Of a DNA stretch of 54,966 nucleotides, positions 8,131 to 38,200 are shown in pieces. Position 1 is the first letter of the stretch, and every line of letters starts with the position of its first letter. The DNA comes from a virus (lineage: Duplodnaviria > Caudoviricetes). A model generated the notes under the pieces. That model saw only the letters and a list, made by a program, of their open reading frames with translations, did no database searches and was not told the DNA's origin. Position numbers and translations under genes: made by a program. The stretch spans positions 1-54,966 of IMG/VR virus record IMGVR_UViG_3300003873_000010. One strand, written 5' to 3'.

Positions 8131-8133
8131 GAT

Positions 8134-9111: not shown

Positions 9112-9122
9112 GAGTATATACT

Positions 9123-9701: not shown

Positions 9702-9706
9702 TACCG

Positions 9707-12155: not shown

Positions 12156-12294
12156 GGACCCCGTCGACGGCAAGGCCATAGTCTATAATTACGAGGGGAT
12201 GGCGGGGGCTCTGTACTTGTGTCGAGAGTCCGTGGCGGCGGTAAAGTTATATTTGAAAACGCTGGGGGATAAGCATGGCGAAGCAGACCATTGA
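12004..12294 (+). CDS. Outer-membrane lipoprotein spanin (Rz1-like), overlapped
   Basis: Signal MILSLSVILPLSSC with lipobox LSSC, Pro-rich, in the +1 frame over the i-spanin 3' end. Confidence 0.8.
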   Translation: MILSLSVILPLSSCARSDVRTPSCVPEVHMVPVRTVIPTPPRLRCPAPPLEDPVDGKAIVYNYEGMAGALYLCRESVAAVKLYLKTLGDKHGEADH

Positions 12295-13372
12295 GTTCCT
12301 GCCTCCAGTCGGGGGGGAGAAAGTAGGCTCCCAGACTATAGGGAGTAAGTCTACTAGGGCCTCCGTGGTGGAGGACTTACTATCTCACGGCGATTACGTA
12401 TCCCCTCGTCCCAAAGAGCGTACGCCTTTGTATCAAGGGCTGGATATTACAGGTGTGGTCCCCGCAGGTGATTATATGTTCCTCTGCGATGCCGGAGAAC
12501 TAAAGCGTGTGAGTCTGGCGGGGGAGGTTATTTCCTACGGGTTCATCGGTGTAGGCAGTACGATGGACTACACCAAGCTCAACGACTGGGTATTTTTCAC
12601 AACAGTAAATGGGGTGTTTCGTGTTGGGGCGTCGTTCGTCCCCGAGTCTATCAGCCTGCCGCAGCCCACTGTAACAGTGGGTACAGGGAACTACACCCTT
12701 GCGGTAACAGAGGTTATCGATGGTCTAGAGTCTCCCCCGTTATACATAACAGGTGCAGGTGTTCGAGGTTCTGGGTTTTATAGATTGTTTAAGCGCCATG
12801 CGGACGACGCGGTCTACCGGTTTGTAGGCGCTGGGAGCGACGTGTCAGGCAACGTGGACGACCCTAACGGGGTCATCCTGCAGACAGAAGACGCGGATAC
12901 ACTCCCGGGAGGGCACTTCTTGGAGTATATGGGCGGTAGGCTCGTAGTGGCTGCTGGGGCGATAGTTTATTTGTCGCTCCCATACGCAGTTAATCTTATC
13001 GACGGGGCGTTCGGGGCCATAGAGTTTACAGGACACATTATGTTCATCACACCCCTCGACCCTGCGACCCTTGTAGTAGGGGATAGTCGTGGTGTTTGGA
13101 TACTGCATATCACGGAGGAGTCCCAGTCCCTGCAACAGGTGTCGTATGAGCCCCCACTGTACGGCTCCGCATCCTTGGTGCGAAACACAAAACTGCTGGA
13201 ACACTCCGCCGCCTCTCATGTATGTACATATTTAGACAAGTACGGTAGAATAGTTGTCGATGCGGGAGGGCAAGTAAAGAAAATCCCGCAGAAGATATCA
13301 GGAGCAGGTTTCAGGTCTAGTAATTTTGACTTCGACGGTGTAGAGGGGGTAGTTTCATGGGAGCTCACGTAG
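12275..13372 (+). CDS. Putative tail nozzle/stabilisation-like beta-propeller protein
   Basis: GRLVVAAGAIVYLS, LVVGDSRGVWIL blade-like motifs. Confidence 0.55.
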   Translation: MAKQTIEFLPPVGGEKVGSQTIGSKSTRASVVEDLLSHGDYVSPRPKERTPLYQGLDITGVVPAGDYMFLCDAGELKRVSLAGEVISYGFIGVGSTMDYTKLNDWVFFTTVNGVFRVGASFVPESISLPQPTVTVGTGNYTLAVTEVIDGLESPPLYITGAGVRGSGFYRLFKRHADDAVYRFVGAGSDVSGNVDDPNGVILQTEDADTLPGGHFLEYMGGRLVVAAGAIVYLSLPYAVNLIDGAFGAIEFTGHIMFITPLDPATLVVGDSRGVWILHITEESQSLQQVSYEPPLYGSASLVRNTKLLEHSAASHVCTYLDKYGRIVVDAGGQVKKIPQKISGAGFRSSNFDFDGVEGVVSWELT

Positions 13373-13887: not shown

Positions 13888-14389
13888 GCTAACAGGGACG
13901 TATAAGATTATGCGGGATGGCATAATCCTTCGCGAGGGGAACAACCGGGTGTTCGGAGATAGTATCGCTACTATATTTGGAGCTGCATTCGATGCGAACA
14001 CCCCGGTGGCCTCTACATACACAACGGGGGTTACTTACATGACACTGGTTACGTATAGTGGGTTTTCCCTCCCCCCTACGGGTGCGTTGACCGTCGCAGA
14101 CTTGGCCGGCTTCACTTCGCAGTTTACAGATTTTGATGTCGTGGATGGCTCAGCCCCCAACGGGGAGGAGGAGAGTAGCAGCTCGTCGAGCGTCGCCACC
14201 GGCTCAGTAGACTACTATATGATGCTCGACGCGAGTAACAACACTGCGGACGTGACCGTTGATGGATTTGTTTTATTGCCTGCGACGCTCTCAGATGCTA
14301 AAATCGTGTTGTCTGGTGCAGCCATATCGCCACCACTCACTGTGGCGGTTGGTGATAGGCTGGATTTTTATTACAATATTTCGTTTTAA
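13880..14389 (+). CDS. Tail-associated protein, paralogue 2
   Basis: C-terminal PLTVAVGDRLDFYYNISF. Confidence 0.6.
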   Translation: MVKLTGTYKIMRDGIILREGNNRVFGDSIATIFGAAFDANTPVASTYTTGVTYMTLVTYSGFSLPPTGALTVADLAGFTSQFTDFDVVDGSAPNGEEESSSSSSVATGSVDYYMMLDASNNTADVTVDGFVLLPATLSDAKIVLSGAAISPPLTVAVGDRLDFYYNISF

Positions 14390-14406
14390 TGTCATTGGAG
14401 GCATAT

Positions 14407-15003
14407 ATGTTCAGTAAAGATTTATTAAAGCACGCTCGTTGGGTTCGTCGTATGATTGGCAACAACAAGCATGAGGTTTCAGAGGGTGGTATTGTGTTGC
14501 CCGGTGGAGCTACAGTTAAAGGGGCTTATGTTCACAGTGTCAACGGTGAAGACGAGCGATGGGATAGCAACTTAATCACCGACGAAGGTATCAACTATAT
14601 GTTAGATGCGGCGGTGTTGGGTGGGGCTGCCGCTTTGTCTAGCTGGTACATCGCATTGTGGAGCGCCAACGTCGTACCAAGCGCCACGTCGACCGCCGCC
14701 GACTTCACTAGCACATACAGCGAGATTGTTTCCTCTACCGAGGGTTACTCGGAGGCTTCTCGCCTGTCGTTTGCAGGTACTCGTACCGCTGCGGGTGTCG
14801 TGGACAACTTAGCATCACGTGCTGATTTCACCATCGCTACTGCGAGCAGTGTCGTCATCGCAGGTGCCGCAGTTCTTAGTGACGCCGCGAAAGGGGCTAC
14901 TACTGGTTCGTTACTATCAATTGCCCAGTTCTCACAAGCCCGTACGCAGTATGATGGTGACATCTTCAGCGTTGGTTATAAGCTTATGATTGTTCCGGGC
15001 TAA
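14407..15003 (+). CDS. Tail-associated protein, paralogue 3
   Basis: GGAGG RBS. NLITDEGINYML, WYIAL and C-terminal GDIFSVGYKL. Confidence 0.7.
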   Translation: MFSKDLLKHARWVRRMIGNNKHEVSEGGIVLPGGATVKGAYVHSVNGEDERWDSNLITDEGINYMLDAAVLGGAAALSSWYIALWSANVVPSATSTAADFTSTYSEIVSSTEGYSEASRLSFAGTRTAAGVVDNLASRADFTIATASSVVIAGAAVLSDAAKGATTGSLLSIAQFSQARTQYDGDIFSVGYKLMIVPG

Positions 15004-15012: not shown

Positions 15013-18000
15013 ATGGATACACGCCCTTATCGTGTCGCGGTTGAGGGGGGTGGCACAATAACGCCCCACCTCAAAACGATAGTGCATAAGGTGCGCAAAC
15101 TTATATCTCGTCACCCACGTCACAACGTATGCGACACGCTACACACTCTCGTAGATGGACACCACGTCACCGTACGTCGTGGGGGGCTCATAGATAACAT
15201 ATACATTCTATACACCTCACATCATACTCACGCAGAAGAAGAGTTCTTGCAGGGGTGGTTTTACGGTGTCTGTACGACAAGTGAAATTCTTGGTGGCTAC
15301 AGGAACGACATCACTTTGCTGGACAACAGCTCCTATTTAAATGCCCACACTGATGCAGCTACGCAGGGGCTTTACGCCACCGCGGTAGCTATTATGTTGG
15401 GCAACTTGCCATACCCTCGGCATAGCATAAACGTCTCAGGCCCAGTTCCAAACTCTACAGTGGTGCGCTGGGGTAGGGGTGGTGTGTTTTCGTTTGTAGC
15501 CCAAGGCTTCGCCTCTCTATGTACAGACGCTAGTTCGCAGGTCGTCGACCGCGCCTTATTTGTGCGGGCGTTTAAGAGTAATGCCGCACACGCGTTCGTG
15601 GGAAATGAAATCCCTCCAAGCCTAACGTCCTACCAGATAGGACTCTTGGAGCAGACCGCATTCGACGCTACTATTGAGTATCTCCGGAAACATAAGCAAG
15701 CCGCCGCGGCCGAGGTGGTTGTGGCATCCCTCACCAACCCAGATGTGCACAGTGTATACGGCTACGCGGGACTTAAAAAAGCGATGCCGAACGTGTGGTA
15801 CGGACTCGAATGCGCGCCAGCCTCGTTGCTCGACGAGAATGGGATGTTTGTGTACATGGATAAGATGCCCGTGTCTATGTACCTCGCAACCTACGCTAAT
15901 GTCATCGGATACACCACCCACGCGGACTCGGTTAAGGTCGGGGCGATGGCGGACCTCGCTAGCCTCAAACCGCAGAGTAACCCCCCAGCGCAGAATGGAC
16001 GCAATTCAGACCCGGGGCTTGCAGTGTACCGAATAGTGAAGCGTGATAAGGTTGGCAAAAGCACCACTGTTCGCGTGGCGGTGTCTTTCGTGCCCGCGTA
16101 TGCGTATGACGCTCACCGCACCCCAGCATATGCGTCTTTACAGACATTGGCGGCTATTGTGGCTATACAGCTCCCGCGATACCTGCTTGAGCTGACGATA
16201 GACCCCATACTACGGCTCAACAAGCAGTATCCCACATCGATTGAGTTTGTGAATACCCATACCGTGAGGGATATGTCTCCCTCTACTACGATTAGCAACC
16301 CGATGATGGCGTTCTACCGCGCTATGGTTGACCATGTTAACGACATGCCGTGGTCCGAATATATAGACCGTAGATACCCACTGCTTCGTTTGGAGTTTAG
16401 TTATGGGGTCGACCCGGATGCGACGGGTCTATACGTCAACTCCTTTTACGGGCTGATACGCGCCTCCTTTACGGCGGATGCGGAATACTATTCACCTCCA
16501 TATCGAGGCGGGTACATTCCGATAGACTACAACGCCCTCGCTGACATCGGGGGGTCGTGGATGGCCCCGGTCGCACGCGGCCCCGAGCCGGATAAGTGGG
16601 CGTCCGCGGATGATGTCCGCGCGACAATGGCGGTCACTAAATGCACACTTGAATATAAGAAGTCCGAGCTTGTAGGTATTAAGGATATTACGCTTTCGTG
16701 CGTTGGGGCTATAGGTTTATTCTCTACGGGGCGCGGGGGGCGGATGATGGACGAGTACAATACTCGGAGCTTAAACACTGATACTTGCGTATCTGCCCTC
16801 ACTCCTTTGTCCGCCACCGAGGGGCAGTCTAACACAAAGGCTACACTCTTAAACGTCTCAGGGAACCTACTGACATTTGACGAGTCCGCCACCCAGACGG
16901 TGCCATACTACAACCGCAGGCTATACCGCAACATACTGACAAACGAAATCGTAGACACCTCTGACACTGCAATACGCAACGCCTCCTCTACCCTGCTTCG
17001 TGTTAAGCACGGTACGGTGCGCTCCGGCCTCGATGCGCAGTACCAATTTCGCCTGAGACACAAAACTCTGCTTGGCTCTGACCCGCGGCTCACTCCGATA
17101 GACCACAGGACACAGCTGACTCTCTCGGGGGAGGATGTATTCAATGCGGACGTTACCCACGAGCTGGGGCAGTTGTCCCTTGCGAGCTCGGAGGACTCCG
17201 TGTTTGTGGCGGAGCTCACGTGCGATGTGTCGTCCGACGGGCTCGCGGTTACAGGTGCAACCATACACCATGCCCCACATCGCCCCCTAACTGCCTCGAT
17301 GCCCGCCTTTGTGGGGGTACGGACTAAGTTAAGCCATACACGAACACGTCGGTCTTCAGACCTCAAGGCGCATCCGACGGCTCGTGACTTCTTCAGGATT
17401 GGGTATAGTTATACATCAGAGGTGAAGCTGTCGAACTCGGTCTCTGGCTCATCCTTACGTGCAGCCCCCGGTGGGTGGACCGCCTCCAACGGTTCCCCGT
17501 ATGTGGCGTTCACCAGTGTATTCTCAGGGTTCGAGCCGTGCAGTACGCCTTCTACGCCCCTCAAGGCGACGCACGTGGGTGATACCCACACCGTGAGCCA
17601 CGTACTGCGCACAGATGCGACACTTAGTATTGAGCTTGGTCCTCCTGATGTCCTACAGCCCGAGGTCACGTCTATTAGTTACAGGGCGGTCGGTAAAGAG
17701 AAGCGGGGTACCGGGCACATCGACGATGCAGGGCCTAGACTCAGTCGCGAAACTGGTGTCAGCGTCATAGATATGCTCTACAGGTTGTCGACCCCCCTTA
17801 TATTTGCGTTGCCGAGCGCCGAAACGGCGTATCTGGATGGGCTTATACTACACGTGGATAGTGCCGACGATGCTGCGAAGCTCACAGAGAGAATGCTTAG
17901 GCGTGTACGTAACCTCGCCACGGACGAACCCCTCTCCTCCAACGATGCCTACATTGTCGCTCATACAAAGCGTGGGTTTGTGGATGGGACCTTCAAACCC

Positions 18001-18459
18001 TACGACATAGTGGACACCCCTCTCATACGCATATTGGCCCCGGTGTTGGACACATACACCAACGGGGGTGGCTACGATGTCAAAATCCGCACGATAGAAG
18101 ACTATAGGCAAATACACACATTCTCTGAGTTCATGCGGTACTACAAAGACCACGCCGCGCCCCCCGACGCTACACCAACGGCCCCTACCGCATCAGACGC
18201 GGTAACATGGGTGACCGGTGGGGCACACCAAACCATCACTCAGGATGACAAGACATACATCAACGGGGGCGACACCCCTGCTAGAATATACGCCGACATA
18301 GCGAAGCCCGGATACTACACAACCTATGAGTTCAGGGTGAATACAGTGTCGGTGAATGGTGGCACATACAGACACTTGTATGTACCACCAGCGCTGAAGC
18401 GCCTAGTTTTCTGCCAGACATACGGGACTTTATATGACCCTTTTAGGACTTTAAAATGA
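15013..18459 (+). CDS. Large hypothetical virion protein (1148 aa)
   Basis: Long ORF in the structural operon; no recognised motif. Confidence 0.7.
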   Translation: MDTRPYRVAVEGGGTITPHLKTIVHKVRKLISRHPRHNVCDTLHTLVDGHHVTVRRGGLIDNIYILYTSHHTHAEEEFLQGWFYGVCTTSEILGGYRNDITLLDNSSYLNAHTDAATQGLYATAVAIMLGNLPYPRHSINVSGPVPNSTVVRWGRGGVFSFVAQGFASLCTDASSQVVDRALFVRAFKSNAAHAFVGNEIPPSLTSYQIGLLEQTAFDATIEYLRKHKQAAAAEVVVASLTNPDVHSVYGYAGLKKAMPNVWYGLECAPASLLDENGMFVYMDKMPVSMYLATYANVIGYTTHADSVKVGAMADLASLKPQSNPPAQNGRNSDPGLAVYRIVKRDKVGKSTTVRVAVSFVPAYAYDAHRTPAYASLQTLAAIVAIQLPRYLLELTIDPILRLNKQYPTSIEFVNTHTVRDMSPSTTISNPMMAFYRAMVDHVNDMPWSEYIDRRYPLLRLEFSYGVDPDATGLYVNSFYGLIRASFTADAEYYSPPYRGGYIPIDYNALADIGGSWMAPVARGPEPDKWASADDVRATMAVTKCTLEYKKSELVGIKDITLSCVGAIGLFSTGRGGRMMDEYNTRSLNTDTCVSALTPLSATEGQSNTKATLLNVSGNLLTFDESATQTVPYYNRRLYRNILTNEIVDTSDTAIRNASSTLLRVKHGTVRSGLDAQYQFRLRHKTLLGSDPRLTPIDHRTQLTLSGEDVFNADVTHELGQLSLASSEDSVFVAELTCDVSSDGLAVTGATIHHAPHRPLTASMPAFVGVRTKLSHTRTRRSSDLKAHPTARDFFRIGYSYTSEVKLSNSVSGSSLRAAPGGWTASNGSPYVAFTSVFSGFEPCSTPSTPLKATHVGDTHTVSHVLRTDATLSIELGPPDVLQPEVTSISYRAVGKEKRGTGHIDDAGPRLSRETGVSVIDMLYRLSTPLIFALPSAETAYLDGLILHVDSADDAAKLTERMLRRVRNLATDEPLSSNDAYIVAHTKRGFVDGTFKPYDIVDTPLIRILAPVLDTYTNGGGYDVKIRTIEDYRQIHTFSEFMRYYKDHAAPPDATPTAPTASDAVTWVTGGAHQTITQDDKTYINGGDTPARIYADIAKPGYYTTYEFRVNTVSVNGGTYRHLYVPPALKRLVFCQTYGTLYDPFRTLK

Positions 18460-21286: not shown

Positions 21287-21849
21287 TTGCAGATACTTTA
21301 CATGCATCCGCAACGGTCGAGGCTACAACCCGAGCCGTGCAGGATGTAACAGGACAAGGTGTTCCTACGGGTGAAGCCTCTAACAACGTGAAAGCGAGTA
21401 TGCTTGCGCGGTCCTCCCGCGTTGGTATTGGGTATACAGCCTCCGCCAACCACTCCGTGGCCAACACCGGATATGTATTACAGCCTAACGGTGCAGTATC
21501 TCGCTTCGCAGGAGGCGCGGTGTTCCAGTTTGTACCCCTGCGAAGCGGTACCATAGCCGTTTCCCCGTCTACTATTATGTCGATGGATGGCCGCGCCTAC
21601 GGCAGGATAGAGTATGACCTGAACTCCGCAGGTATGCGGTTCACCCCACAGAAACTCATGCTGCACACAGACGCACGCGTGCGTCTCCAAGTGTCGGGGG
21701 TGGCCTACAGTGGTCGTCGTGTTGTACAAATAGGGCGCGGGGTAGTGTTCGCCACGGGTACTTTTGTGGTAGAATTCAGGTCAACAAGTGAATATTACGG
21801 GTGTACCCTATTCGTTAGCGGTACACAAAGAGGGTGGAGACGGCGATGA
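21283..21849 (+). CDS. Hypothetical virion protein
   Basis: AGGAG RBS, coupled on both sides. Confidence 0.65.
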   Translation: MIADTLHASATVEATTRAVQDVTGQGVPTGEASNNVKASMLARSSRVGIGYTASANHSVANTGYVLQPNGAVSRFAGGAVFQFVPLRSGTIAVSPSTIMSMDGRAYGRIEYDLNSAGMRFTPQKLMLHTDARVRLQVSGVAYSGRRVVQIGRGVVFATGTFVVEFRSTSEYYGCTLFVSGTQRGWRRR

Positions 21850-24800
21850 GTAGTTCGGTACGTAGTAAATATAATGACGATAAACAGTGGGTCACAAGTA
21901 GACTATCAGACGCACAGAAGTCTTTAGATGGGTTGCTTGGCTCGTTCTCAAAGTCTATAAATGACCTATCCCGTCAGTATGGCGGGGTGTCTAATTCGGT
22001 CGCATCCGCGCTTAACAACATGGCCAAATCAGTCCAGTCGACTGTAGGGAACCTCGGGAGGGGCACATCTTCCGCCGTCAAACCCCCAGCGCCCACTCTG
22101 CACGCCCCCTTGCAACCGCCAACTGTACGCGCATATCAGTATACTGCGCAGTCTATCTCTCCGTTGGACGCCAGTCGTGTAGGCACACACATACGCAATG
22201 TGGGGCCGTTCGATACGCCCGCCCCTACGATGGGCTCTATACCTGCGGTTGATAGTAATATACCTAGCATCCAGTTCGGCACTACACCCTCAGCGAAGCC
22301 TTTACAGACGTCCGCATACACTCCGGGCACATTGGACTATAAGGCTCCTAACGCTCCGTCGTTCGGACCCACCCCCAGCGCGCAGTTAGATGGCGACGTC
22401 ACAAAAGGGATGGACTCTGTTGGAGTCCCGACACTTGCCGACTATACCACAGAGGTGCCAGCGGCTGCCCCGGGGCCGTTGGTCGGTAGCACCGCGATAC
22501 AGGTTGACTCCTTGGCGACACTAAACGCTCCGTCGTTCGGGCAAGCTCCCGCGAAGCACGCCACGACTGCTCCCGGCTTCTTGGCGGTGCCTGATGTCGC
22601 TATCAGCGATGTGCCCCAGTCGTTACTGGACACCTCTGGCACGAACAACCTACTTAGTACGGCCCAGACAATAGCAGGTAAAGTGAAGACAGATTTTGGT
22701 GCTGCACCTACCGCGGGTACGGTCTCTGAGACTCTACAGACTGCGACTGCGCTTGACACGACTGCGTTGGATAACATCTCCGCCAAAGTAGACGACTTAT
22801 TGAAACTCACGAACGCCCCGCCGACCGTAGGGTCTGCGTATGTTACAGCAGGCGCGGCACCTGTTGCGAGCGCGACCGGTATGGCCGCTGGAACTGCCCC
22901 GGCAGTAGATGCGACCACACCTACAGTTGACACTGCACCGACAGCGACGGCACAAGGGGCAACACTTGGGGATGCGCCTACGCTCAGCGCTACTGCACCT
23001 ACTATTAGCAGTTCGCCAACCGTGACCACCCCCGACCTGACTGTACCCGAGGCCCCCGCGCTATCAACTGGGACCTTGACACTGGACAGCGTCCCCACAA
23101 TCGCGGACCGTGCATTGCCCACGGCGCCTACTCTCGCAAACCTCGTCAGCCCTACAATAAACGCGCCTAGCACGCCTACATCACCTACCCTGACGCAGTA
23201 TGCTGCGCCATCCGCTCCGACCTTAGATTGGGGCGTTACGGTGGCCGCGGCTCCGGCTGTATCTCTGCCCACATTCCCACAGTTACAAGATGTAACTATG
23301 CCACAACCCCTGCAGGTGAACATAGACACGATGACCGAGGTGTTTGATTGGCAGGATATCTCCCTAACAGCCCCCGCATACACGTTCGCACCAGAGAAGT
23401 ACATATCGAGTTTAGACGCCGTGATGAAAGGGACAGCGGACGAGATACAAACCTTTGAGGAGGTGTCTGCCAAAGTGCGTGGGGTTCTGTATAAATTCCC
23501 AACGGTCGCAATCGACAACGATACCGCTGAGGCCGTCAACACTGCCCGGGCCGACTACTCGTTTGGTGGGTTCACACGGCCTACGTCCCTGATGGACGCC
23601 CGCATTGCGAAGATACGACGCGACGGTGACAAGCGCAAAGCAGAAGTGTACGCGAAACTCTCAGAGAGCATCGTGCAGCACACACTGCAGTACCGCTCTG
23701 AGGTGCGGGCTTCGTACCAGAAACTACAAGAATTAAGTTACCAATCGTTCAAAGACTACCACGTCATGCTGAAAGAAATCGCAGACACTACCTACGCTAC
23801 GGCGGTGGACCTCCTTAAGGTGCAGGTTGAAGTCGTGAAAGCGAAAGCTGCGTGGTTCAACGCCCACGTAGAGAAGTATAGAATATCTATGACCAGAGCA
23901 GCGGTAGAGGTGGATGCGTACAAGGCGCGTGTCACAGGCCTGCAGGTCGTAGGAGCGCTGAACGAGACCAAAGCTCGTATATACGAGGCCCAGCTCAAAG
24001 GCAGTCTAGCCGTGCTCGACCAGTACAAGCAACAGTTGGAGGCGGACAAACTCAAAATAGAGTTGAACAGTGCGCAAGTAAAAGCCTACGGGGAACAGGT
24101 GTCCGCTTACGGTGAACTCAACCGTGCCGAGGGTGTGAAAGCCCAGATTTACGAAGCCCAGATTAAGGCCTATATCGGAGCGTGGGACGGAGAGCGTGCC
24201 AAGTTGGATGTGTACAAGTCCCAGATGGCTGCTGAGAAGTTGAAAGCGGATGTGTATGAGAGTGGTGTCCGAGCCGTCTCTACCGCCGTTACCGCAGATG
24301 TGGAGAAAGTCAAGGCCGTTGTGAGCCACAACCAAGGACTCATCGACGCGTTCAAGGCCCACATAGCGGAGGACAGTGCGAAGCTGAAAGCATACGAGGT
24401 GACAACGCAGGGTACAATCGACGCATACAAAGCCCGTCTATCCGGAGATGATATGCGTATCAAGGCCTACGACGCCGAGGTGCGTGGCAAATCTGAGATT
24501 TACAAAGCCACCATCTCAGGGTACGAAGCGGCCATGCGAGGGTATGAGGCCTACACTCATGCGCAGGCAGAGGGCGTCAAGTCTAGCATCGCCATTGACG
24601 ACTTGGGGTTACGTCGATACGAAGCGATTAACACCGCAAAACTTAATGCAGCGAAGTTCGACCTTGCGAGAGCGGAGGCGAAACTACACGCATACGAAGT
24701 CCAACAGCACGCTTCGTACGAAGTGTTCAAGTCCAAGCTTGACGTCGACGACCTCAAGATGCGTCTGTACCGCACCACCGTGGAGGCCAAGGTGGACGCG

Positions 24801-26444
24801 TTCAAAACGCGCCAAGCGGTAGACGAGATGAACGTCAAGCTATACGACGCGCAGTCTACGGTCGTCGCCCGTGGTATTGACAGTGCGAGTCGTGGTGCAG
24901 CCGTTGCGGTTGACATCGCACGTGTGAACGAGAGCGCAGTTACAGGCCACAACCAGTTCGTTATCGACAGATACAAAACAAACACAGAACAGTTCCAAGC
25001 CGATATCGAGGCGTACAAAGCCTCTATCGCGGTAGCAAGTCAGCTGGCAAGTGCCGCGGGGTCGATTGGCTCTGCAGCCGGCTCTGTTGCTAGCTCACAG
25101 GCGGACGCCATCCGAGGGTTCGTCGCTTCACAAGGGGCAAAAGTTGACAAAGTAAAAGCCATCGCAGAGGTGAACCGAGCGAAAGCCGAAGTATATCGCG
25201 CGGATGTGCAAGCTTACACGGCAGAAGTGGATGCGTATCGTGCTACGGTGGGCGGGGAGCAGAGCAAGATGACTGCATGGGCAGCATATTACAATGCCGC
25301 ATCAAGCCGGGCCACCGCGCAAGCTACAGGAGCGACAGCAGCCTCGGACGCATATCGGGCACATGCCAACTCCTACATCGCGCAGGCCTCGGCTTACTCC
25401 GCTCAGAACTCCGCCGCTGCATCTCGTTATGACACGATGCGAGCCTTGGAGAGCGTTAAGTCTGCAACCATAGACGCTAAAGCGAGAGTAGCTACCGCGA
25501 ACGCGCAGGTGCAAGCGGCGTTCGCAGATGTGCAGAAGTCTAAGGCGTACGTGGAGCAGGCAAAAGCAGATGTGTATACAAACAATGTGAAAGCGTCTCA
25601 AGCATATGTGGCGGCCCAGAGTACCGTAGAGCAGGCACGGGCTGATGTCGCTATTGACAACGCCAAAATCATACAGATTGAGGGCGAGATAAACAAAGCC
25701 CAGTTCCAGTCGTACGCCGCATCGGTCGACGCCCAAGCTCGCAAAGTCGCAGCGTACGGCGAAGTAGCACGTGCACAAGCCACCGCTGCGCAAGCGGCCA
25801 GTGAAGCGAACAAAGCGAAGTCTGTAGCGTTCAGTGCGCAGGCGGACGCATACAGGGCCAAAGTCCAAGCGGCTATGGCGGCAGAGCAGGGAGAAGCTGC
25901 GTATGTCAGCGCCCAAGGCGATAGAGCGCGGGCCCAGATGGCCAGCGTCGAGGCCGAGGGACAGCGACTCCGTGCACAAGGGCAGGCGGACGCAGCCCAC
26001 GCATCGAGTATTGGCGCGTACAACCAAGCGATTGGCCAGCAGAACGCCACAGAGGCCGACAAGCTCCGTGCATGGGCCTCGTATAACCAAGCCCTCGGAG
26101 CGTACGATACCGCGAAAGGTAAGATAGAAGCCTACCAAGCTCAAGCTGCGGTGGAGGCTGCGCGAGCAGGGATGGATAAAGCCCTCGTCGCTGCGCAGAG
26201 TACCCTTGGAAACATCGATAAGCAGATGAACTGGGTGTCCACTTCGGTCTCGGCGAGAGCCAGAGCGCAAGAAAGTATTATCGCTGGTATATCGTCCGCG
26301 GTTAATTTCTCGACAAGTTTATCGTATAATGAGTCCATGTCTGAGCAGTACCAGAAGTCAATCGGTCAAACTCAGTCAATTTACTCGCAGGCCGAAGGCG
26401 CGGGGTACGCCCCCAACGCGTCTTGGAACGCCGTTTTACCGTAG
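21846..26444 (+). CDS. 1532-aa fibrous virion protein: Pro/Thr-rich arm then Ala/Tyr-rich helical arm
   Basis: GGAG RBS. 13-aa and 25-aa repeat blocks (see findings). Confidence 0.8.
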   Translation: MSSSVRSKYNDDKQWVTSRLSDAQKSLDGLLGSFSKSINDLSRQYGGVSNSVASALNNMAKSVQSTVGNLGRGTSSAVKPPAPTLHAPLQPPTVRAYQYTAQSISPLDASRVGTHIRNVGPFDTPAPTMGSIPAVDSNIPSIQFGTTPSAKPLQTSAYTPGTLDYKAPNAPSFGPTPSAQLDGDVTKGMDSVGVPTLADYTTEVPAAAPGPLVGSTAIQVDSLATLNAPSFGQAPAKHATTAPGFLAVPDVAISDVPQSLLDTSGTNNLLSTAQTIAGKVKTDFGAAPTAGTVSETLQTATALDTTALDNISAKVDDLLKLTNAPPTVGSAYVTAGAAPVASATGMAAGTAPAVDATTPTVDTAPTATAQGATLGDAPTLSATAPTISSSPTVTTPDLTVPEAPALSTGTLTLDSVPTIADRALPTAPTLANLVSPTINAPSTPTSPTLTQYAAPSAPTLDWGVTVAAAPAVSLPTFPQLQDVTMPQPLQVNIDTMTEVFDWQDISLTAPAYTFAPEKYISSLDAVMKGTADEIQTFEEVSAKVRGVLYKFPTVAIDNDTAEAVNTARADYSFGGFTRPTSLMDARIAKIRRDGDKRKAEVYAKLSESIVQHTLQYRSEVRASYQKLQELSYQSFKDYHVMLKEIADTTYATAVDLLKVQVEVVKAKAAWFNAHVEKYRISMTRAAVEVDAYKARVTGLQVVGALNETKARIYEAQLKGSLAVLDQYKQQLEADKLKIELNSAQVKAYGEQVSAYGELNRAEGVKAQIYEAQIKAYIGAWDGERAKLDVYKSQMAAEKLKADVYESGVRAVSTAVTADVEKVKAVVSHNQGLIDAFKAHIAEDSAKLKAYEVTTQGTIDAYKARLSGDDMRIKAYDAEVRGKSEIYKATISGYEAAMRGYEAYTHAQAEGVKSSIAIDDLGLRRYEAINTAKLNAAKFDLARAEAKLHAYEVQQHASYEVFKSKLDVDDLKMRLYRTTVEAKVDAFKTRQAVDEMNVKLYDAQSTVVARGIDSASRGAAVAVDIARVNESAVTGHNQFVIDRYKTNTEQFQADIEAYKASIAVASQLASAAGSIGSAAGSVASSQADAIRGFVASQGAKVDKVKAIAEVNRAKAEVYRADVQAYTAEVDAYRATVGGEQSKMTAWAAYYNAASSRATAQATGATAASDAYRAHANSYIAQASAYSAQNSAAASRYDTMRALESVKSATIDAKARVATANAQVQAAFADVQKSKAYVEQAKADVYTNNVKASQAYVAAQSTVEQARADVAIDNAKIIQIEGEINKAQFQSYAASVDAQARKVAAYGEVARAQATAAQAASEANKAKSVAFSAQADAYRAKVQAAMAAEQGEAAYVSAQGDRARAQMASVEAEGQRLRAQGQADAAHASSIGAYNQAIGQQNATEADKLRAWASYNQALGAYDTAKGKIEAYQAQAAVEAARAGMDKALVAAQSTLGNIDKQMNWVSTSVSARARAQESIIAGISSAVNFSTSLSYNESMSEQYQKSIGQTQSIYSQAEGAGYAPNASWNAVLP

Positions 26445-26452
26445 GATGAGAT

Positions 26453-28504
26453 ATGAACGAACAAGCCATACCAATTAGTGCCTCCACAAATGCAGGTTCC
26501 ACAGATGAAACCCCGTCGACGAATAAGTTAGTACGTGCGGTCTCAGCGCACGATGTGGTGAACGAGACACGCACCGTAGAGGATATACCTGTTCGCTACC
26601 GCGACGAGGTTGCCCATCTAGTAGAGGACGCGTTTTCCGCTGCAAAAACATACAGACGTGCGGCTGCAATAGACCAACGCATAAACGACGCACGTAGAGC
26701 TCGCGACGGGGAGTATAACCCTGCGAAATTGGCTGCGATTAGGGCTGCCGGGGTTTCGACGGAGTACGCCCGCATCGTGGCCAACAAGGGGCGGGTCGTG
26801 TCCGCGTGGCTCGCGGATGTGTACACAAACATTAGTGAACCGCCGTGGCGCGTCGCTCCCCCTGCAGACATAGAAATTCCTGATAGCACGAAGCAACACA
26901 TCCGCCAGCAGGTTGGGCAGTACTTTATGCAGCTGGCACAGAGCGGTGTTCCTGTTGACCCGCAGGTGATGACGGCACTGATAGAGCAGGAGGAGTCGCA
27001 GGTACGGTCTAAGCTTAGGCAGCAAGCCATTACGGAGGCGGAGACTATAACAAACGAACTGAAGACTACACTGCGCCAAAGCAAGTTCGACAGTGTAGTT
27101 AGTGAGTTCTTACATGACTTCGCTTTCTTCCCTACGGCCATCATCAAAGGCCCTATTATGCGCAACCGTACCACCTACGACTTTAAGACTATGGAGCCGG
27201 GGGACGAGCTGGTTTATGCGTTTGAGCGCGTCGACCCTGAGAACTTCTACCCTGCCCCCGAGGCCACCACAATCGAAGAGGGGTACGTAATTGAAGTCAC
27301 CCGCATCACGTACAAAGATTTGCTCGATATGAAGCATGACCTAGGGTTTGACAGCAAGGCAGTGTCTGAGACATTGCGTAAGGCCCGTAATGGAGAGCTA
27401 GATAACTGGCTCGATTATATCGACAACCCTCTGCGTGAGGGTCTGATAATGAATATGCGCAACCCTGGCGAACTGCTTGGGTATACGATTGACTGCATCG
27501 AGTATCACGGGGCTATGTACGGCGACACCCTACGAGATTTTGGACTTATAAGCGTCGAGGACGAAGATGTCTATGAGGCTTCTATCCTAGTCGTTGACGG
27601 GTGCACACTGCGAGTAGAGATAAACGCAGACCCCCTCAAACGCAGACCCTATTTCTCTGCGTCCTATGAGCCAGTACCCGGCAGTTTCTGGGGTCACGGG
27701 CTCCCTGATGTGTTACAGGACGTGCAGAACGTCGCGAACGCAGCGACTCGAGCCCTAGTGAACAACATGGGTATGGCCTCAGGGCCTCAAGTCGTAGTCG
27801 ACGTAGACAACCTCGCCGACGGAGAAGAGATTACGAACATAACACCGTGGCGTGTGTGGCAGGTGTCATCCGCGTATAACCAAGGGTCAGAACCCGTCCG
27901 TTTCCACCAGCCCACATCCAATGTCGGAGAGCTCTTATCCGTGTTTGACCGGATGTACGAGCTGGCAGATGAGCTTAGTATGACCCCTCGCCTGCTCACA
28001 TCCGGGCAAGCGGGCACGCTAGGCAGGACTGCGAGCGGGCTCTCAATGCTCATGAACTCCGCATCAAAAGGCCTACGCCGTGCCGTGCACACTATCGACA
28101 CGAGGGTTCTAACGCCCGCCATCGAGCGACTGTACCACACACTCTTGCGATACGACGACATAGACACCCCCATATTCGGAGGCGACTTGCGGGTCTCTGG
28201 TGCGAGCAGTGTATTACACGAAGACACTTTACAGGTGCGCCGTAACGAGTTCTTGCAGATGACGGCCAATCCGATTGACTCTCAGTTGATGGGGCCAGAG
28301 GGTAGACTTGCGGTACTTCGAGAGGTTGCAAAAAGTCTTGACATGGATGTTGACCTCGTGATGCCCACACAACAGGAGCTCGAGGCGCGTATGCAACAAG
28401 GGCAGCAACAAGGGCAGCAACAAGGGCAGCAACAAGGGCAAGTGGGCAGTGGGCAGCAGCTACAATCAGGTGCAGAAGTAACTAATAACGTACAACCATC
28501 ATAA
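26453..28504 (+). CDS. Portal protein
   Basis: 683 aa before scaffold/capsid. ERVDPENFYPAP, PGSFWGHG, NNMGMASGPQ and RTASGLSMLM motifs; Gln-rich tail. Confidence 0.9.
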   Translation: MNEQAIPISASTNAGSTDETPSTNKLVRAVSAHDVVNETRTVEDIPVRYRDEVAHLVEDAFSAAKTYRRAAAIDQRINDARRARDGEYNPAKLAAIRAAGVSTEYARIVANKGRVVSAWLADVYTNISEPPWRVAPPADIEIPDSTKQHIRQQVGQYFMQLAQSGVPVDPQVMTALIEQEESQVRSKLRQQAITEAETITNELKTTLRQSKFDSVVSEFLHDFAFFPTAIIKGPIMRNRTTYDFKTMEPGDELVYAFERVDPENFYPAPEATTIEEGYVIEVTRITYKDLLDMKHDLGFDSKAVSETLRKARNGELDNWLDYIDNPLREGLIMNMRNPGELLGYTIDCIEYHGAMYGDTLRDFGLISVEDEDVYEASILVVDGCTLRVEINADPLKRRPYFSASYEPVPGSFWGHGLPDVLQDVQNVANAATRALVNNMGMASGPQVVVDVDNLADGEEITNITPWRVWQVSSAYNQGSEPVRFHQPTSNVGELLSVFDRMYELADELSMTPRLLTSGQAGTLGRTASGLSMLMNSASKGLRRAVHTIDTRVLTPAIERLYHTLLRYDDIDTPIFGGDLRVSGASSVLHEDTLQVRRNEFLQMTANPIDSQLMGPEGRLAVLREVAKSLDMDVDLVMPTQQELEARMQQGQQQGQQQGQQQGQVGSGQQLQSGAEVTNNVQPS

Positions 28505-28529
28505 TATACTTGATTTTTAGGGCGAAAAC

Positions 28530-28724
28530 ATGGAACATACTACACAGAACACAAAACTTCGTCGGGCCTCTATGGACTCGGACTTACTGTCATATATCGA
28601 AACGCTAATAGACTCACGCAAAACGAGTCTTGTAAGCGCCGATACTGTAGAAGAAGTCCGCCGTTTACAGGGAGGCATCACGGAGCTAGTGCTATTACTT
28701 AAAACCATCAAGAGGTCCAACTAA
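28530..28724 (+). CDS. Small head-associated protein
   Basis: 64 aa with RRLQG motif between portal and scaffold. Confidence 0.65.
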   Translation: MEHTTQNTKLRRASMDSDLLSYIETLIDSRKTSLVSADTVEEVRRLQGGITELVLLLKTIKRSN

Positions 28725-29611: not shown

Positions 29612-29621
29612 GAGATAACAT

Positions 29622-30542: not shown

Positions 30543-30550
30543 ACGTTAAA

Positions 30551-30576
30551 GCCCTCCTAGAGGGGGGCGTTTTCTT
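30551..30576 (+). terminator. Intrinsic terminator after MCP
   Basis: GCCCTCC-TAGA-GGGGGGC followed by GTTTTCTT. Confidence 0.7.
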
Positions 30577-30590
30577 AGAGGATTTATACA

Positions 30591-30806: not shown

Positions 30807-30808
30807 CC

Positions 30809-31381: not shown

Positions 31382-31390
31382 GAGGTCCAC

Positions 31391-32206: not shown

Positions 32207-35200
32207 ATGCCTAAGCAAGCCATCCCACAAGTAGACCAAAACACCTCCGCCCTCGGCGATTTAATTACCAGTGGACAAATAGGACTTGAAAGTGTACCGG
32301 GGGCCTTAACAGGTTTACTGGATACATATGCAGGGCTATTTGGGGAGAACCACCCGTACGGACGGGCCGCGGATGCGCTTGGGCGTGCCACAGGCTTTCA
32401 ACCCCACGAGTGGATTAAGCAGAACCAAGCCGAATACACCCCCGAATACCAGCAGGTGCAGCAAGATTTCCACAACGCCGACGGTTTTCTACCCTCTGCC
32501 CTTACATTGCTTGAACACCCCACATTAGCACTTAACACAGCGGTGCAATCCGTTCCGTCGATGATGGCGGGGGGGTTGGCAGGTAGAGCTCTTCGCGCTG
32601 TAGCCCCGGGGATGGAAGCAACCACCGCCGCAGGTGCAGGTGAGGGTGTCGTGATGGCGGGGTCGCAGATGGACAGTCTGCAACACACAGGACTCAACCC
32701 CTTTACGGACGCGCTCGCATCGGTCGCGACTGGGGCGCTAGGTGGTCTAATTGGAGCCAAGGGCGCGAAGACGGCCGAGGCCCACGGGGCGCGGGATATA
32801 AACGTGATGCTCTCAGGGGGGAGTGGTATGAAGGGTGCGAGTATCCGGCAGGGTATCGCACACGAAGCCGCGCAAGAAGCCTTACAGAGCACGGGTGAAA
32901 CTGTGCTCGGTAACGTAGCTCAAGGCATTGACCCGTTTAACCAGCTCGCGCAGAATGTGGTGCTGGGTGCAGCTGCGGGGGGTATGATGGGTGGTGGTGC
33001 GAACGCATACGCAAAACTCCGCAACCACCAAGCGGCCCAAGCGAACGAGCCTCCAATGGGGGTGCCCATACTGCACCCTGAGACCGGGGCTATTACAGAC
33101 TCCAACACAGGCGCAGTACTGATGCCCAAGGAAGAAGTGGCGCAATACGTCACTCCAGAGGACGCCGCGCTAACTACTCCAGAGGGCATACCTGCTACTC
33201 CAGAGGGCATACCTGCTACTCCAGATGGCATACCTGCTACTCCAGATGGCATACCTGCTACTCCAGATGGCATACCTGCTACTCCTGCTACTCCAGATGG
33301 CATACCTGCTACTCCTGCACCGCAAGTGGAACCTACAATTACTGTCCCTGCGGACACCAAGCCCCCCCGCACCTTAATCCCGAACGAAGCCGTGCATGAA
33401 AAAATAGCAAAGGCTCTGACGCGTCGCAATGTAGTAAGTGTCGACGCTGCAGATGTACACCACGCGGACCTCGGGAGCGTGCATATAATCGGGGACCACT
33501 TTGCGAAAGTAACAAACGTATCTGATAAAGGGAAAGTACTTCTAGCACGCACGAAGCCAGAGGACGTTATTAATGGCATAATAAAATCTCTTAACACGGA
33601 GGGCAATGCATCGCCTTTCGTCCCCAACCCCAAAGACTCCCACACCCCCGATACAGGCGCCCCGCACCTTGCGATGTCACCGGCGCAGTTCGTGCAGGCA
33701 GTCGCACGCACCACCAGTACACGCAAGGTGAAGAACATTATCCAGCCCACAGTAGAGGCGAAAACGCCCGAAGCCGCCGCCATACACCAAGCCGTGTATG
33801 TGGCTAGCAATGTTAGTAAGCACAACCTGCCATCGAACGTAACAGATGTAGCGGCCAAATTCGCTGATAGCGCAGTCACGAACAAAGACCCCGCGGCGTC
33901 TTTGGCCCTAAGAGCTATGACGGTAGGAGTAGAACACGTGCATAGAAGCGCCCAGTCTCCTGTAGTCCGCGTGAAACCCACCCCAGAGGCATATGGAAAG
34001 GTGGTGTCCGCCATCGGGACTGAACTCACAAGCGATTTGACCCCTGCAATTGCCGGGCACTCTATGGCTTCGGACTTCTTCGGGGTAGGTACACATAACG
34101 CGTCGGTCCCAGACCCAATACTCCCAAGCGCGGTACCCGTTGCAGTTGATAACCTGCACGCGCAGGGGCACTCTAACGCAGCTAAGGTTGTCAGCGATGC
34201 ATATCTAAGCACAGACACCCCCATCGTTACGCAATCTGACTTGACGGCTGCAGTTGTGGCCAACGATAGCCTCTCTACTGATGAGAAAAGTGCAGCGGTG
34301 TATGCACTGATGGATGCGACCTTGTCGGGCAGTGTGGACACCACCTCGTCAGCGGAGCGTTTACAAGAGAAAAGCAGTGTGCCCCCTCCAGAGTATGTGC
34401 CCTACGCGCCTAGCGTCAAACAACCAAAGGGTAAGAGCAAGCCAGTCTCCACCCTCGAAGCCCACCTACCCCCTGAGGCCTTAGACTCTCTGAGCAAACT
34501 AGGCTCTCATGTAGTAAACACTGCGGACTCGTTACTGCGCAGAACACAACCGCAGACGGAGAAGCCCGCAGGGCAGACGGCCACGAGGGACCTCGTACGT
34601 GATGTCAAAGGCGACCCCCTCTTAAAGAACACGATAGATTACATCTCGAAACGCCAAGGGTCCGGAGACCACACCCTGCCTACCGCCCTCATAGATGCTA
34701 GAACGCCGGCCACGAAGGATGCAGGGATAGCGTCGGTGCACGGCCTAGTAACCAGTGCGCTGACCAAAGCGGGGGTAAACCCCGTGATAACTTCGCAAAT
34801 AGCGGACCGTCTAGTCCACGGCAAACTTGCAGGCTACTTGAAGAGCGGGGATGGGGCACAAGGGTTCACGGCCCCTCTGAAGCACATGATGGCTAACATC
34901 GCAACTGACGCCGCCACTACAGTAGGCGAACAAGACAGCAGTGTCGATGTGGCCTCAGAACTGAATAAGATAAAGGACGTACACCTGCCAAACGTTGTGT
35001 CCGTGCTAAACCCAGACGACCCCACTCTGAAGTCCACCGTGTACCACGAGCTGATGCACTCGGGCATGTCCCCAGCAGGGCGTAAAGCTGCGTTACAGTA
35101 TATGCACCGAGCCGCGAAATCAACGAACCCAGAGATACGCAAGTTGTTCGCCAATGCGGTTACCCGTGCATCAATGTCCGGCACAGGTGCGCCAGTTTCC

Positions 35201-38200
35201 AATGGGAAAGTTGAGGAGGCCGTGGCCTACATGCTCTCGTCGGCCGCCGACAAAGCTACCTCGCAGGGAGTTACGCTCGACCACTATCTTAACAAGGGGG
35301 CGGGCAAAAGCATCAAGCACTTCATCTCACACATCATCTTGCCTAAAGTTAGAGCCTACGGCCTGCGTAAGAACATGAAACTTAAAACAAGTGCGGGGTT
35401 GAACCTACAGACTTTTGCAGAGCTCGCCCGCTATGCAGGTGTGGATGGGGCGAAGAACACCACGACGCAAGAAGCTACTCCACCTGAGCAAGCTCCACCT
35501 GAGCAAATGTCCAACGCATCCGACGGCATCATGCCCTCAATGCCGACTCCAACGGACGCTGGTAGTGGTGGTGTTAATGAACCCCCCGTGAATGACGCAG
35601 GCGCAGCGCCAGATGGAGGGTTCCGTAGCCCAGAAGCGGAGTCACGGCAACAGGTCGTGGGCGCCGCGTACAAAATATACTGGGGGTTAAAGGCCCTAGG
35701 GTCTAAATTAAACCAGCTATTCAACTTTCGCCACCGCCTCGTGCAACAAGCTGACAAATACTTACGAGGCTTGCCAAGCAAGTACTTCGACTTTATGAAG
35801 CGCGTCACGGCAGACGCTCGAAGCGCGAACGCAACACTGCACGATATGCTACAGCAAACAGGGGCGATGTCCGACGAAGACATCAACGGCACGAACGAAT
35901 TACTGGTCAGGATGCAGGAACTCATACAAGTTGCAGAGTCCGAAAAGGACGCCCCCTATCTATGGCCGTTCCACCCTGACTGGCTCGCCGGAGAGAACAA
36001 GGGGCGTCCTGTCGAGGTCGACTACGAGCTCGCGCAGATGTTCGACGCCCTCAGCCCGCAAGCGCAAGAGCTGTTAAAAGGTATGATGCACGAGTCCTAC
36101 CTATCTACGAAGCGTCACATGGACGCTCTCCATGTATTCCAGAATGAGACAATAGCAGAGTTGCTTTCGGAAGGGGTAATCACCGCGGCAGAAGTGGCGG
36201 ACTTGGATGCAGATTTCACTGCCCAGATGGAACAGTTGCAGAAGCGCGCCGCAGCTCCATACGCACCTCTGTCCCGCGACGGGGCGTATGTTGTCGTCGG
36301 GCAGTCGGATGAGTATGCAGAACTCGACGCCGAGATAAGTAAGCGACGAGTTCTCATCAACGAGACCCGTAGCAAACGCAGGAATGCGCTAAAGAATGGG
36401 GACGTCGGGATAGTCGAAGCCCTGACGGAAGTACTGCAGATGCAACTGGATGAGCTGAAACCCCTGACGAAAGATGCAGAGGATATGCGGGGGGACCCAG
36501 AGCACTACTTCTTTAGTATGGCCGATACTCTAGCAGAAGCGAAAGGGTTGGAGCAAACCCTAACTGAATTCCCATCTACTCGCGTGGCGGAACGTAGTGC
36601 CGCGGAAGACATCACGGGGGGCTCGAAAGCTGTTGAGCTGGCACGCCTGCACGCTGAGAGCGCTCTCGGTACTGCGGATGCGGGTGGGGTAGACGCCGTA
36701 CTGTCGTTATACCTCATACAGTTACAACATAATAGCCTAGCGTCGCACTTGAAACACCGTAGGTTAGTGCAAGGGTTCGATGAGAACTTGCTAGCGAGCA
36801 TGGCGCACTCAATTACGGCGCGGAACAACGCGGCTGTCAGTGCAAAGAACTCCGGTACCGCTGTAGATTTACTGCACCAGATGCGTAATGTCGCCCGGGC
36901 CGCCACAGATGAGGACGCCCTCGACGCGTCGAAGTACGCGAACGAAATGATACGAGGGCATCGAGCACTGACCCGCCCCATCAACGGTTCAGAGCATTCA
37001 ATCCGCAAAGCCTCCGCCGCTGTGATGGCGGGCAACGCGTTCTTTAACCTGCTGACGAGCCCTATGTTTTACGCGCAAACGTGGTTGCAGAACTTGCAGA
37101 TGGTATTCCCTCTACTATCAGGGTTCGGAGTGGCAAATGCCGCCAACGCATTGATACAGGCGCACAAGGATATGTTCGCGGCCAGAGAGCGAACCAAGAA
37201 ACGCTACGGGCTGGGGTGGGCAAAGGGTATTTTCTCAGGGGAACTCCTGCTCGACGATGCCATCGAGGACCCAGCTGAGCAAAAAGTGCTTCAGGTCCTA
37301 TGGGACGCGGAGCTTTTAGACTTAGGTCTCAGCTCCGACTTCGGGGACTTATCCGCGATGGGGGACTCAAACCCTATAATGCGCAAGGCTAAGCAGCTTC
37401 ACCTTGCACTATCCCACGCGTCCCGTGTTGCAGAGGTGCACGCTCGCGGCGCTGCGGCGCTGGCGGCATATAGAATGAAGCTCGCGAACGTTACGAAGCT
37501 AGAGATGGCTACGGTTGGACCTCCCCGATATAAAGGGGAAGAGGGCTTAACTCAGAAAGAGCTGGTTGCGTTACGATATGCGAGGGAGACACTTGTCAAA
37601 GGTCACGGGGATTACTCGCACACTGATGCACCTAGGATTATATCGTCTATCCCAGGGGGTATCGGTAACGCCTTGTTCCAATACAAGAAGTTCATGATTA
37701 TTCAGCTACTATACACAAAAGATTTGTTTGTGGATGCTATCAAGTCCGCGCGAACCCCAGACGAAAAGGCCGCGGCTGTCGTCGCTAAGAAACAGTTGGC
37801 CGTTACATTCGCAACTGCACTGGCGACAACAGGCCTGCTTGGCCTGCCGGGGGCCACTATCCTGCTGCACCTCATGGCCTTTGGCGGCGGGGACGACACG
37901 CCAGACGATGACGCTGTCAAACTTAAACTGCGAGAGATGTTCGGCTCGAACGCCGACCTTGCACTGCACGGACTGCCTACACTACTTGGTCTATCACTCA
38001 CGGAGTCCATCGGGTTCGGGAATGTAGGCGTCCCTGTGCCTTACGCCCAGATGGATATGTCTAAGAACGGGTTCAATGGGCTACTCGTCTCATTATTAGG
38101 CCCGACGCCGGGCAACGCCTCCAAGATTTGGACGGGCGCAGGGCGCGTTGCGCAGGGAGACCTCCTCGGAGGCATGCGTGATATGGCTCCTACTGGACTG

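Follow-up and report, generated by a model that had tools for sequence, protein, structure and literature searches.

Which function is served by the 1532-residue protein encoded on the + strand at positions 21846..26444 (stop included) of IMG/VR virus record IMGVR_UViG_3300003873_000010 (Caudoviricetes), and how would such a chain be arranged in the virion? The whole analyzed stretch of this record, 54,966 nucleotides (nt), is called the window here, and the product of the open reading frame (ORF) the window protein. A preliminary description had read it as a hairpin of two length-matched arms, one Pro/Thr/Ala-rich and one helical, and had likened it to the stalk of streptococcal antigen I/II. 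We regard the ORF, with a probability of about 0.72, as coding for the subunit of the tail tube in a phage of podovirus lineage whose tail is of the A1002/F116 type. It encodes a putative tail tube protein, an expanded member of the A1002 gp37/H66 gp58 family. Its ATG at 21846 overlaps the stop of the preceding ORF (21283-21849). In comparisons with its relatives the window protein carries the number P0001, and the other P numbers denote members of its family.

The chain opens with a Pro-free, Ser-rich N-terminal segment (residues 1-79, 21846..22082), the first Pro occurring at residue 80 or later. The following Pro/Thr/Ala-rich arm (residues 80-516, 22083..23393) was delimited by its composition, by the absence of predicted regular secondary structure in an AlphaFold2 (AF2) model and by the N flank of 516 residues left by a hidden Markov model (HMM) of the family core. 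Residues 517-656 (23394..23813) correspond to this conserved core, two antiparallel helices whose homology to the gp37 nozzle-dock was found with the core HMM, a family profile searched against the PDB and hhalign, in agreement with AF2. A Pro-free, Ala/Tyr-rich helical arm (residues 657-1451, 23814..26198) was then recognized by composition, autocorrelation and AF2. The chain closes with a Ser-rich, non-helical tail (residues 1452-1532, 26199..26441), for which AF2 gave no regular structure and a predicted local distance difference test (pLDDT) value below 40; it is partly conserved in the family, with an alignment occupancy of 0.68 at residues 1476-1500. The prolines are almost completely partitioned, 59 of 61 lying in residues 80-579 and none in the 943-residue run from 580 to 1522, which confirms the Pro/Thr/Ala arm and the Pro-free helical arm of the preliminary description. 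Its polyproline wording needs correction, since the arm contains only about 12% Pro, plus Thr, Ala and Ser, and is not a polyproline. Throughout the family the Pro positions of the N arm are nearly invariant.

Both arms contain a repeat block, detected by protein autocorrelation and expressed as z against shuffled sequences. In the N arm, seven 13-residue units starting at residues 339, 352, 365, 378, 391, 404 and 417 fill residues 339-429 (22860..23132); over residues 330-440, z was 5.7 at lag 13 and 6.9 at lag 26 (shuffle maximum 3.6). In the C arm, seven 25-residue units (7+7+11) fill residues 829-1003 (24330..24854), with z of 11.7 at lag 25 and 10.4 at lag 50 (shuffle maximum 4.3). The rest of the helical arm was dominated by the heptad lags 7 and 14, at z 8.5-9.9. 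Both repeats had been noticed beforehand and are real, the 25-residue block having been placed exactly. Tandem Repeats Finder returned 0 rows on the DNA; the 13- and 25-residue repeats exist at the protein level only and, because the DNA holds no tandem repeat, they are old. In the 151-row family alignment, column occupancy was 0.78-1.0 for residues 451-750 and 0.01-0.05 in the two repeat blocks, with 0.01 in the 13-residue block. The part of the window protein conserved in this alignment comprises residues 451-825, and both repeat blocks are insertions unique to the window protein. What had been described as a short non-repetitive turn is therefore the most conserved part of the protein.

Relatives were collected with HMMER (phmmer), using residues 380-1100 of the window protein against 1.84 billion representatives. 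This gave 1002 matches at E<=1e-3, 426 of them at E<=1e-10; the 150 listed are mostly 600-660 amino acids (aa) long, and the closest among the matches listed, P0002, has 928 aa and 31% identity. Named phages with a homolog include the F116-like Pseudomonas phages H66 (gp58) and phiC725A (phiC725A_52), both with 630 aa, Pseudoalteromonas phage PalP_Y7 with 893 aa and Shewanella phage SbaS_Y11 with 901 aa. H66 gp58 aligned to residues 347-899 of the window protein at 24% identity. The sole PHROGs match of the window protein was phrog_10969 ("unknown function") at E 9.8e-47, and Pfam recognized 0 families at E<=0.01 on the whole protein. A search with the full-length window protein at near lengths found no homologs, and a search with the family profile at shorter lengths gave only 4 fragments of 168-197 aa. 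Some homologs in phage records are labeled "LigA", "Rho guanine nucleotide exchange factor 11" or "chromosome segregation ATPase", labels that probably stem from low-complexity or coiled-coil matches.

The link to a known tail structure came from the middle of the protein. The profile of the family (147 members) matched the 318-aa chain 26la_X/44nx in the PDB at E 7.6e-17, profile positions 200-309 aligning with chain residues 96-207. Comparison of the family with KPP25 ORF003 (318 aa, from the same genus as A1002) by hhalign gave a probability of 97.9% and E 3.4e-13, and in BLASTP the same KPP25 protein matched 74 of the 155 other comparison-set sequences at E<=1e-5, at best 7e-17 over 233 columns. 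The window protein in turn matched the core HMM at residues 519-653 with an independent E-value of 8.9e-9. Judged by these sequence comparisons, it is, via its family, a homolog of the gp37 nozzle-dock. Entry 44NX holds gp37, the 318-residue tail tube protein of Pseudomonas podophage A1002 (PMC13730344). In gp37 an irregular, peripheral outer-wall domain (residues 4-105) precedes the nozzle-dock of two antiparallel helices (106-186) and an inner channel domain of helices (187-305) (PMC13730344). Twelve copies form a double-layered tube 240 Å high, an external component of the mature A1002 tail; the tube accounts for 24 nm of a tail of 40 nm (PMC13730344). The earlier statement that such an architecture was not known from phage virions is out of date, as this 318-residue version was published in November 2026 (PMC13730344). 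KPP25 ORF003 and its homologs in 8P and Epa33 carry the annotation "structural protein". Homologs of the nozzle-base and fiber II proteins are encoded upstream of the tube gene in the window, as in KPP25 and H66.

The order of parts seen in gp37, an irregular N-terminal part, two antiparallel helices and long C-terminal helices, was also found in the AF2 models of the window protein and of P0007, a family member of 634 aa. The P0007 model (mean pLDDT 75.6) begins with a helix at residues 9-44 and is non-regular from 45 to 194, yet with pLDDT values of 70-92 at residues 50-110; after this N arm it contains a helical hairpin and then a single helix from 255 to 599. The window protein was modeled over residues 333-1532. 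Residues 333-521 are mostly without regular structure, with two 3-residue helices only, the nozzle-dock helix spans 522-573, and the next helices follow from 580 onward. A complex prediction of the P0007 N arm (45-194) with its C arm (255-600), both with alignments, scored 0.11 (mark 0.32) and gave no verdict in either direction. Foldseek found no match of the P0007 model in the PDB at E<=0.001, in a library that extends to 2026-04-08 and in which the A1002 entries are perhaps absent. A wide search with VIA-align returned only generic helical hairpins (residues 214-289 of the P0007 model) with Z up to 8.9, within noise for helical models. The hydropathy of the helical arm of the window protein peaked at a period of 2.30-2.33 (7/3) with a power of 176-318, not at 3.5, and the same 7/3 period was present in P0007, P0004 and P0099, the shuffle baseline covering periods of 3.0-4.2 only. 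This points to helices with three hydrophobic stripes each instead of a single seam.

Arm lengths were taken as the numbers of residues before (N flank) and after (C flank) the core HMM match in each sequence; a fixed sequence motif had matched 95 of 151 sequences and missed the window protein and H66, and the core HMM was used instead. The length statistics cover 150 family members. A fit on 147 of them, excluding the window protein and the probable N-truncated gene calls P0144 and P0077, gave N = 0.508 × C + 37.7, and over the 150 members N rose with C at a slope of 0.51-0.54. The 318-aa KPP25 ORF003, with flanks of 84 and 92 residues, falls on this line (85 predicted for N), as do H66 gp58 and phiC725A_52 with flanks of 189 and 301 (191 predicted for H66). 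For PalP_Y7 (285 and 466) and SbaS_Y11 (293 and 466) an N flank of 275 is predicted, and for the window protein (516 and 876) one of 483; P0004 has flanks of 424 and 726. Computed on a core-region tree, 150 independent contrasts yielded r 0.90 and a slope of 0.56. Long forms are the window protein with P0002, then P0004, P0041, P0099, P0100 and P0122, and Y7 with Y11. Each has ordinary-length nearest relatives, and both arms have therefore lengthened together at least 7 separate times.

The repeats show the same proportion on a smaller scale. To the 13-residue (7 copies) and 25-residue (7 copies) units of the window protein, with a ratio of 0.52, correspond units of 23 aa (about 6 copies) and 42 aa (about 6.5 copies) in the N and C arms of Y11 and Y7 (ratio 0.55), and of 21 aa (about 4 recognizable copies) and 39 aa (about 6 copies) in those of P0100 (ratio 0.54). 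Paired repeats were thus recognizable in only 4 of 9 long proteins scanned, representing 3 lineages. In the window protein the core is preceded at a distance of 87-178 residues by the 13-residue block and followed at 173-347 residues by the 25-residue block. The ratio of these distances is 0.50-0.51, which puts both blocks at the same axial level if two helical residues pair with one outer residue. The claim of a hairpin of two arms that expanded together at about 1:2 is supported by the covariation of arm lengths across the 150 members, by the register of the blocks and by the two other lineages with paired repeats. The pairing of a helical arm with an extended Pro-rich arm at about 2:1 was found both in the slopes of 0.51-0.56 and in the repeat ratios of 0.52-0.55. 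With a rise of 1.5 Å per helical residue, the repeat ratios correspond to about 2.7-2.9 Å per outer residue, which is an extended chain. Slope and ratios thus imply an extended N arm, for which polyproline-II is a candidate conformation only.

By homology with A1002 gp37, about twelve copies of the window protein would assemble into one tube, with residues 517-656 docked beneath the nozzle. The Pro-free C arm (residues 657-1451) would extend down the tail and supply one of the helices of a 12-helix barrel, the inner channel for the DNA, and the Pro-rich N arm (residues 80-516) would lie extended along the outside of the same barrel as its outer wall. The chain would thus traverse the tail twice, as a hairpin with both termini at the distal tip, where the gp37 topology would also place residues 1-79. 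The number of subunits, the collinear course of the helices, the choice of the outer arm and the length of the tail are all transferred in this model from a homolog that shares only the middle domain; the coupled arm lengths and the repeats in register speak for twelve copies with an outer wall and an inner channel only indirectly. Among the appendage, ruler and DNA conduit proposed in the preliminary description, the homology favors the conduit. Tail length would be set directly by the length of the polypeptide, with neither a tape measure protein nor stacked rings, and a longer tail would require the insertions in the two arms to match, at about one outer residue per two helical ones. Such a need would explain the paired 13- and 25-residue repeats, each pair adding about 3.7 nm.

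This model would make tail length predictable from sequence. With A1002 as the standard, each helical residue contributes 0.155 nm and the portal-to-nozzle part a further 16 nm, so that the F116-like phage phiC725A, whose protein has 630 aa, should have a tail of 69 nm. Its published tail, "short thin" and rigid, measures 66 nm on a head of 78 nm (PMC5217972). The same 69 nm is predicted for F116-like phage YF1204, its own protein being assumed similar to those of its relatives (~630 aa), and its tail was reported at 69 nm with a head of 67 nm (PMC13028781). For the window phage, with 1532 aa, the tail is predicted at 151 nm and the tube at about 135 nm. A wider proposal, to which we give slightly less than even odds, is that this lineage builds long, rigid, siphovirus-looking tails without tape measure or stacked rings: twelve giant hairpins would span the tail twice, and its length would be written in one gene and evolve in quanta by paired tandem duplications, the window phage being the extreme case so far. 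If this were true, the repeat pairs of the other lineages would add 5.9 nm (21/39) and 6.3 nm (23/42) per unit, compared with the 3.7 nm of the 13/25 pair.

Several observations weigh against a collinear tube subunit. The recognizable homology to gp37 is limited to about 115-233 residues at 26-29% identity, the arms do not align, and residues 451-825 of the window protein alone had no match in the PDB in a single-sequence phmmer search. The AF2 model of the window protein is of modest confidence (mean pLDDT 61.9, predicted template modeling score 0.36). It contains ten helices over residues 580-983 and 1033-1451, with eight short breaks and a 49-residue non-helical stretch at 984-1032; with the C arm broken in this way, a single straight 130-nm rod is not predicted as such. 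The arm-length coupling is weakened in three respects: the robust Theil-Sen slope was 0.38 (0.27-0.47), the 140 members below 720 aa were only weakly coupled (Pearson 0.22, Spearman 0.39), and in 8 of 28 sister pairs changing by at least 10 aa the arms changed in opposite directions. An N-arm repeat was not recognizable in P0002, P0004, P0041, P0099 and P0122 among the nine long proteins scanned. SbaS_Y11 (901 aa) has a published tail of 72.2 nm (PMC10846135), shorter than the predicted 95 nm; its head is reported at only 57.8 nm, so the length scale may differ. In the GenBank record of H66, gp52, gp54 and gp60 are flagged as virion proteins verified by mass spectrometry and gp58 is not; the fiber homolog H66 gp55 likewise has no such flag. 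Finally, the 1148-aa ORF at 15013..18459 (+ strand), assigned by position only to the place of the nozzle-rope gene in the gene order of KPP25 and H66, had neither detectable similarity to the nozzle-rope protein nor detectable internal repeats.

The solitary or trimeric fiber of the preliminary description, in which an α-helix is intertwined with a polyproline-II strand as in antigen I/II and which would serve as an appendage or ruler instead of a tube wall, has in its favor arm lengths scaling at about 0.5 to 1, repeat blocks in register and a Pro arm without predicted regular secondary structure. We regard it as quite improbable, the least likely of the alternatives, since a protein solved as a dodecameric tube (PMC13730344) has a nozzle-dock homologous to the conserved middle, an arm with about 12% Pro is not a polyproline, and Pfam finds neither antigen I/II nor any other domain. 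The 2.30-2.33 hydropathy period of the C arm would also be unlike that of a simple two- or three-stranded coiled coil, for which 3.5 would be expected. The breaks in the modeled C arm, with their short linkers and one 49-residue gap, and the Y11 tail below the collinear prediction would fit a tube subunit whose long C arm folds back into hairpins or bundles, giving a tail far shorter than 135 nm with the surplus as decoration or a distal knob. A folded arm, however, has no need for a 0.5 to 1 match with an extended N arm or for repeat blocks in register, and the F116-like tails of 66 and 69 nm agree with the collinear calibration; we consider this variant unlikely.

Equally unlikely, in our estimate, is an ejection protein analogous to internal virion protein C (IVP-C), stored in the particle, extended through the envelope at infection and sharing only the docking domain with gp37. 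Favoring it are the location of the gene, with the nozzle gene on one side and the giant IVP-D-like gene on the other, at the usual podovirus site of highly helical internal virion proteins (PMC4819975), and the lack of a virion-detection flag for H66 gp58. Against this stand the solved A1002 structure, in which gp37 is an external component of the mature tail (PMC13730344), and the permanent thin tails of 66-72 nm of F116-like phages and Y11, far longer than the nozzle alone. A coupling of Pro-rich and helical arms would, moreover, have no obvious role in a stored protein. Internal virion proteins are hard to recognize from sequence (PMC4819975); similarity to the IVP-B, IVP-C and IVP-D families, which are weakly recognizable in this way, did not appear in the searches (Pfam 0, sole PHROG match phrog_10969). 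In its available part, the survey by Hardies 2016 (PMC4819975) names no candidate for IVP-A or IVP-B in the F116 group. A tape measure protein was considered as well and rejected, the window protein being homologous to a tube wall protein; no siphovirus-type tube or tape measure family was seen, and the window ORFs scanned yielded neither a tape measure nor a tube-ring family.

As a putative tube subunit, the window protein shares with A1002 gp37 and KPP25 ORF003 (Kochitakasuvirus) a homologous nozzle-dock, the order of parts, the neighboring nozzle-base and fiber II genes and the line that relates N to C length. It differs from gp37 in its 1532 aa versus 318 aa, in a predicted tube of about 135 nm versus 24 nm and in the internal 13- and 25-residue blocks, which are present only in the window protein; the outer domain of gp37 consists of three helices joined by loops (PMC13730344), that of the window protein of the 437-residue Pro/Thr/Ala arm. 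To the F116/H66 gp58 family (~630 aa) it belongs over its full length and with the same three-part architecture, but its arms are about 2.7-2.9 times longer (516/876 versus 189/301). The N4-like phages N4, DEV, Moo19 and B2 also have a tube of twelve long helical subunits without stacked rings, yet a single-layered one (PMC13730344), and are likened to the window phage by architecture alone. With tape measure proteins it would have in common that the length of one helical protein sets the length of the tail and that repeats alter it; a tape measure, however, lies inside a tube made of many copies of another protein, whereas the window protein would itself be the tube. In the stalk of streptococcal antigen I/II, a monomeric cell-wall adhesin, the helix of the A-region is wound with the polyproline-II helix of the P-region. 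The likeness lies in the hairpin, in a helical arm set against an extended Pro-rich arm at about 2:1 and in repeats in both; the differences are the missing Pfam homology, a probable 12-fold tube and an arm with only about 12% Pro.

In the current view, a long phage tail is a stack of tube rings, and a tape measure protein determines how many are stacked. A1002 revealed another design, a short, double-layered helical tube, and the window protein with its about 1000 relatives suggests that lengthening one gene is enough to extend such a helical tube from 24 nm to about 135 nm, under an apparent rule of one outer-wall residue per two channel residues. The window phage would thus possess the same tube design at five times the length, and we have not found the scaling rule and the paired repeats in print. 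The available text of the A1002 discussion (PMC13730344) makes no mention of F116-like homologs, longer versions or a length rule, and in the literature on this tube and these genera no paper was found that assigns a function to the gp58 family. Such tubes would account for the repeated descriptions of F116-like "podoviruses" and Shewanella phage Y11 as bearing thin tails of 66-72 nm or as siphoviruses. They would also give a testable predictor of tail length from sequence and a case from nature in which two segments far apart in one chain are obliged to expand together. By homology, a putative function would be assigned to a large family now annotated as hypothetical or, wrongly, as LigA, Rho exchange factor or chromosome segregation ATPase.

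The surroundings of the gene combine tail and head modules. The nozzle-base-like protein (365 aa, 12275..13372, + strand) matched H66 gp54 (E 4.9e-7) and KPP25 ORF008 (E 4.9e-4) in BLASTP and phrog_8040 at E 1.6e-18, with no match to the PDB in phmmer. The homolog of A1002 fiber II gp41 (204 aa, 14389..15003, + strand) matched 26la_U/44nx (171 aa) in phmmer at E 7.5e-16, KPP25 ORF007 at E 3.5e-20 and H66 gp55 at E 7e-31. It is the third of three small ORFs (176, 169 and 204 aa; 13357-15003) after the nozzle-base-like gene and the only one to match A1002 fiber II. Paralogy among the three was not convincing, as only the first two share an 18-residue C-terminal stretch (E 0.003); these two may be further subunits of the chain fiber. 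An endolysin gene (10972-11478; phrog_315, E 5.6e-34) is located upstream of the nozzle-base-like gene at a distance of about 800 bases, and a 173-aa ORF (11634-12155) separates the two; in KPP25 the nozzle-base gene follows immediately after the endolysin gene.

Downstream, the portal protein (26453..28504, + strand) was identified by PF23899 (E 3.1e-18) and by Rhizobium phage portal genes (E 1e-82). It opens a group of head genes (26453-32161) that separates the tube gene from the IVP-D-like giant gene: portal, a 295-aa ORF (phrog_13678), major capsid protein (29622-30542) and SU10-type adaptor (30809-31381). In Pfam searches of the window protein and its neighbors only portal and adaptor were recognized. 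The giant gene (32207..38641, + strand) encodes 2144 aa, with an N-terminus like that of H66 gp60 (tblastn E 1.7e-12; phrog_30335, E 5.9e-33); only the first ~260 residues resemble H66 gp60, the remainder being without a match. H66 gp60 is a giant IVP-D-like internal virion protein (PMC4819975). In the H66 stretch gp52-gp60 nothing but a 695-aa ORF separates the tail genes from the giant gene, and in KPP25 the head genes are upstream of the tail genes. Compared with both, the order of modules in the window is therefore rearranged.

Five ORFs directly after the large terminase gene (5870-10111; 518, 235, 325, 192 and 134 aa) have no PHROG match, and the first four are also without a Pfam match; the portal and capsid genes are located elsewhere. 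At the other end, a minus-strand replication module begins with a 993-aa primase/helicase-like protein (38710-41691, - strand; phrog_25314, E 2e-93) and extends to the end of the window.

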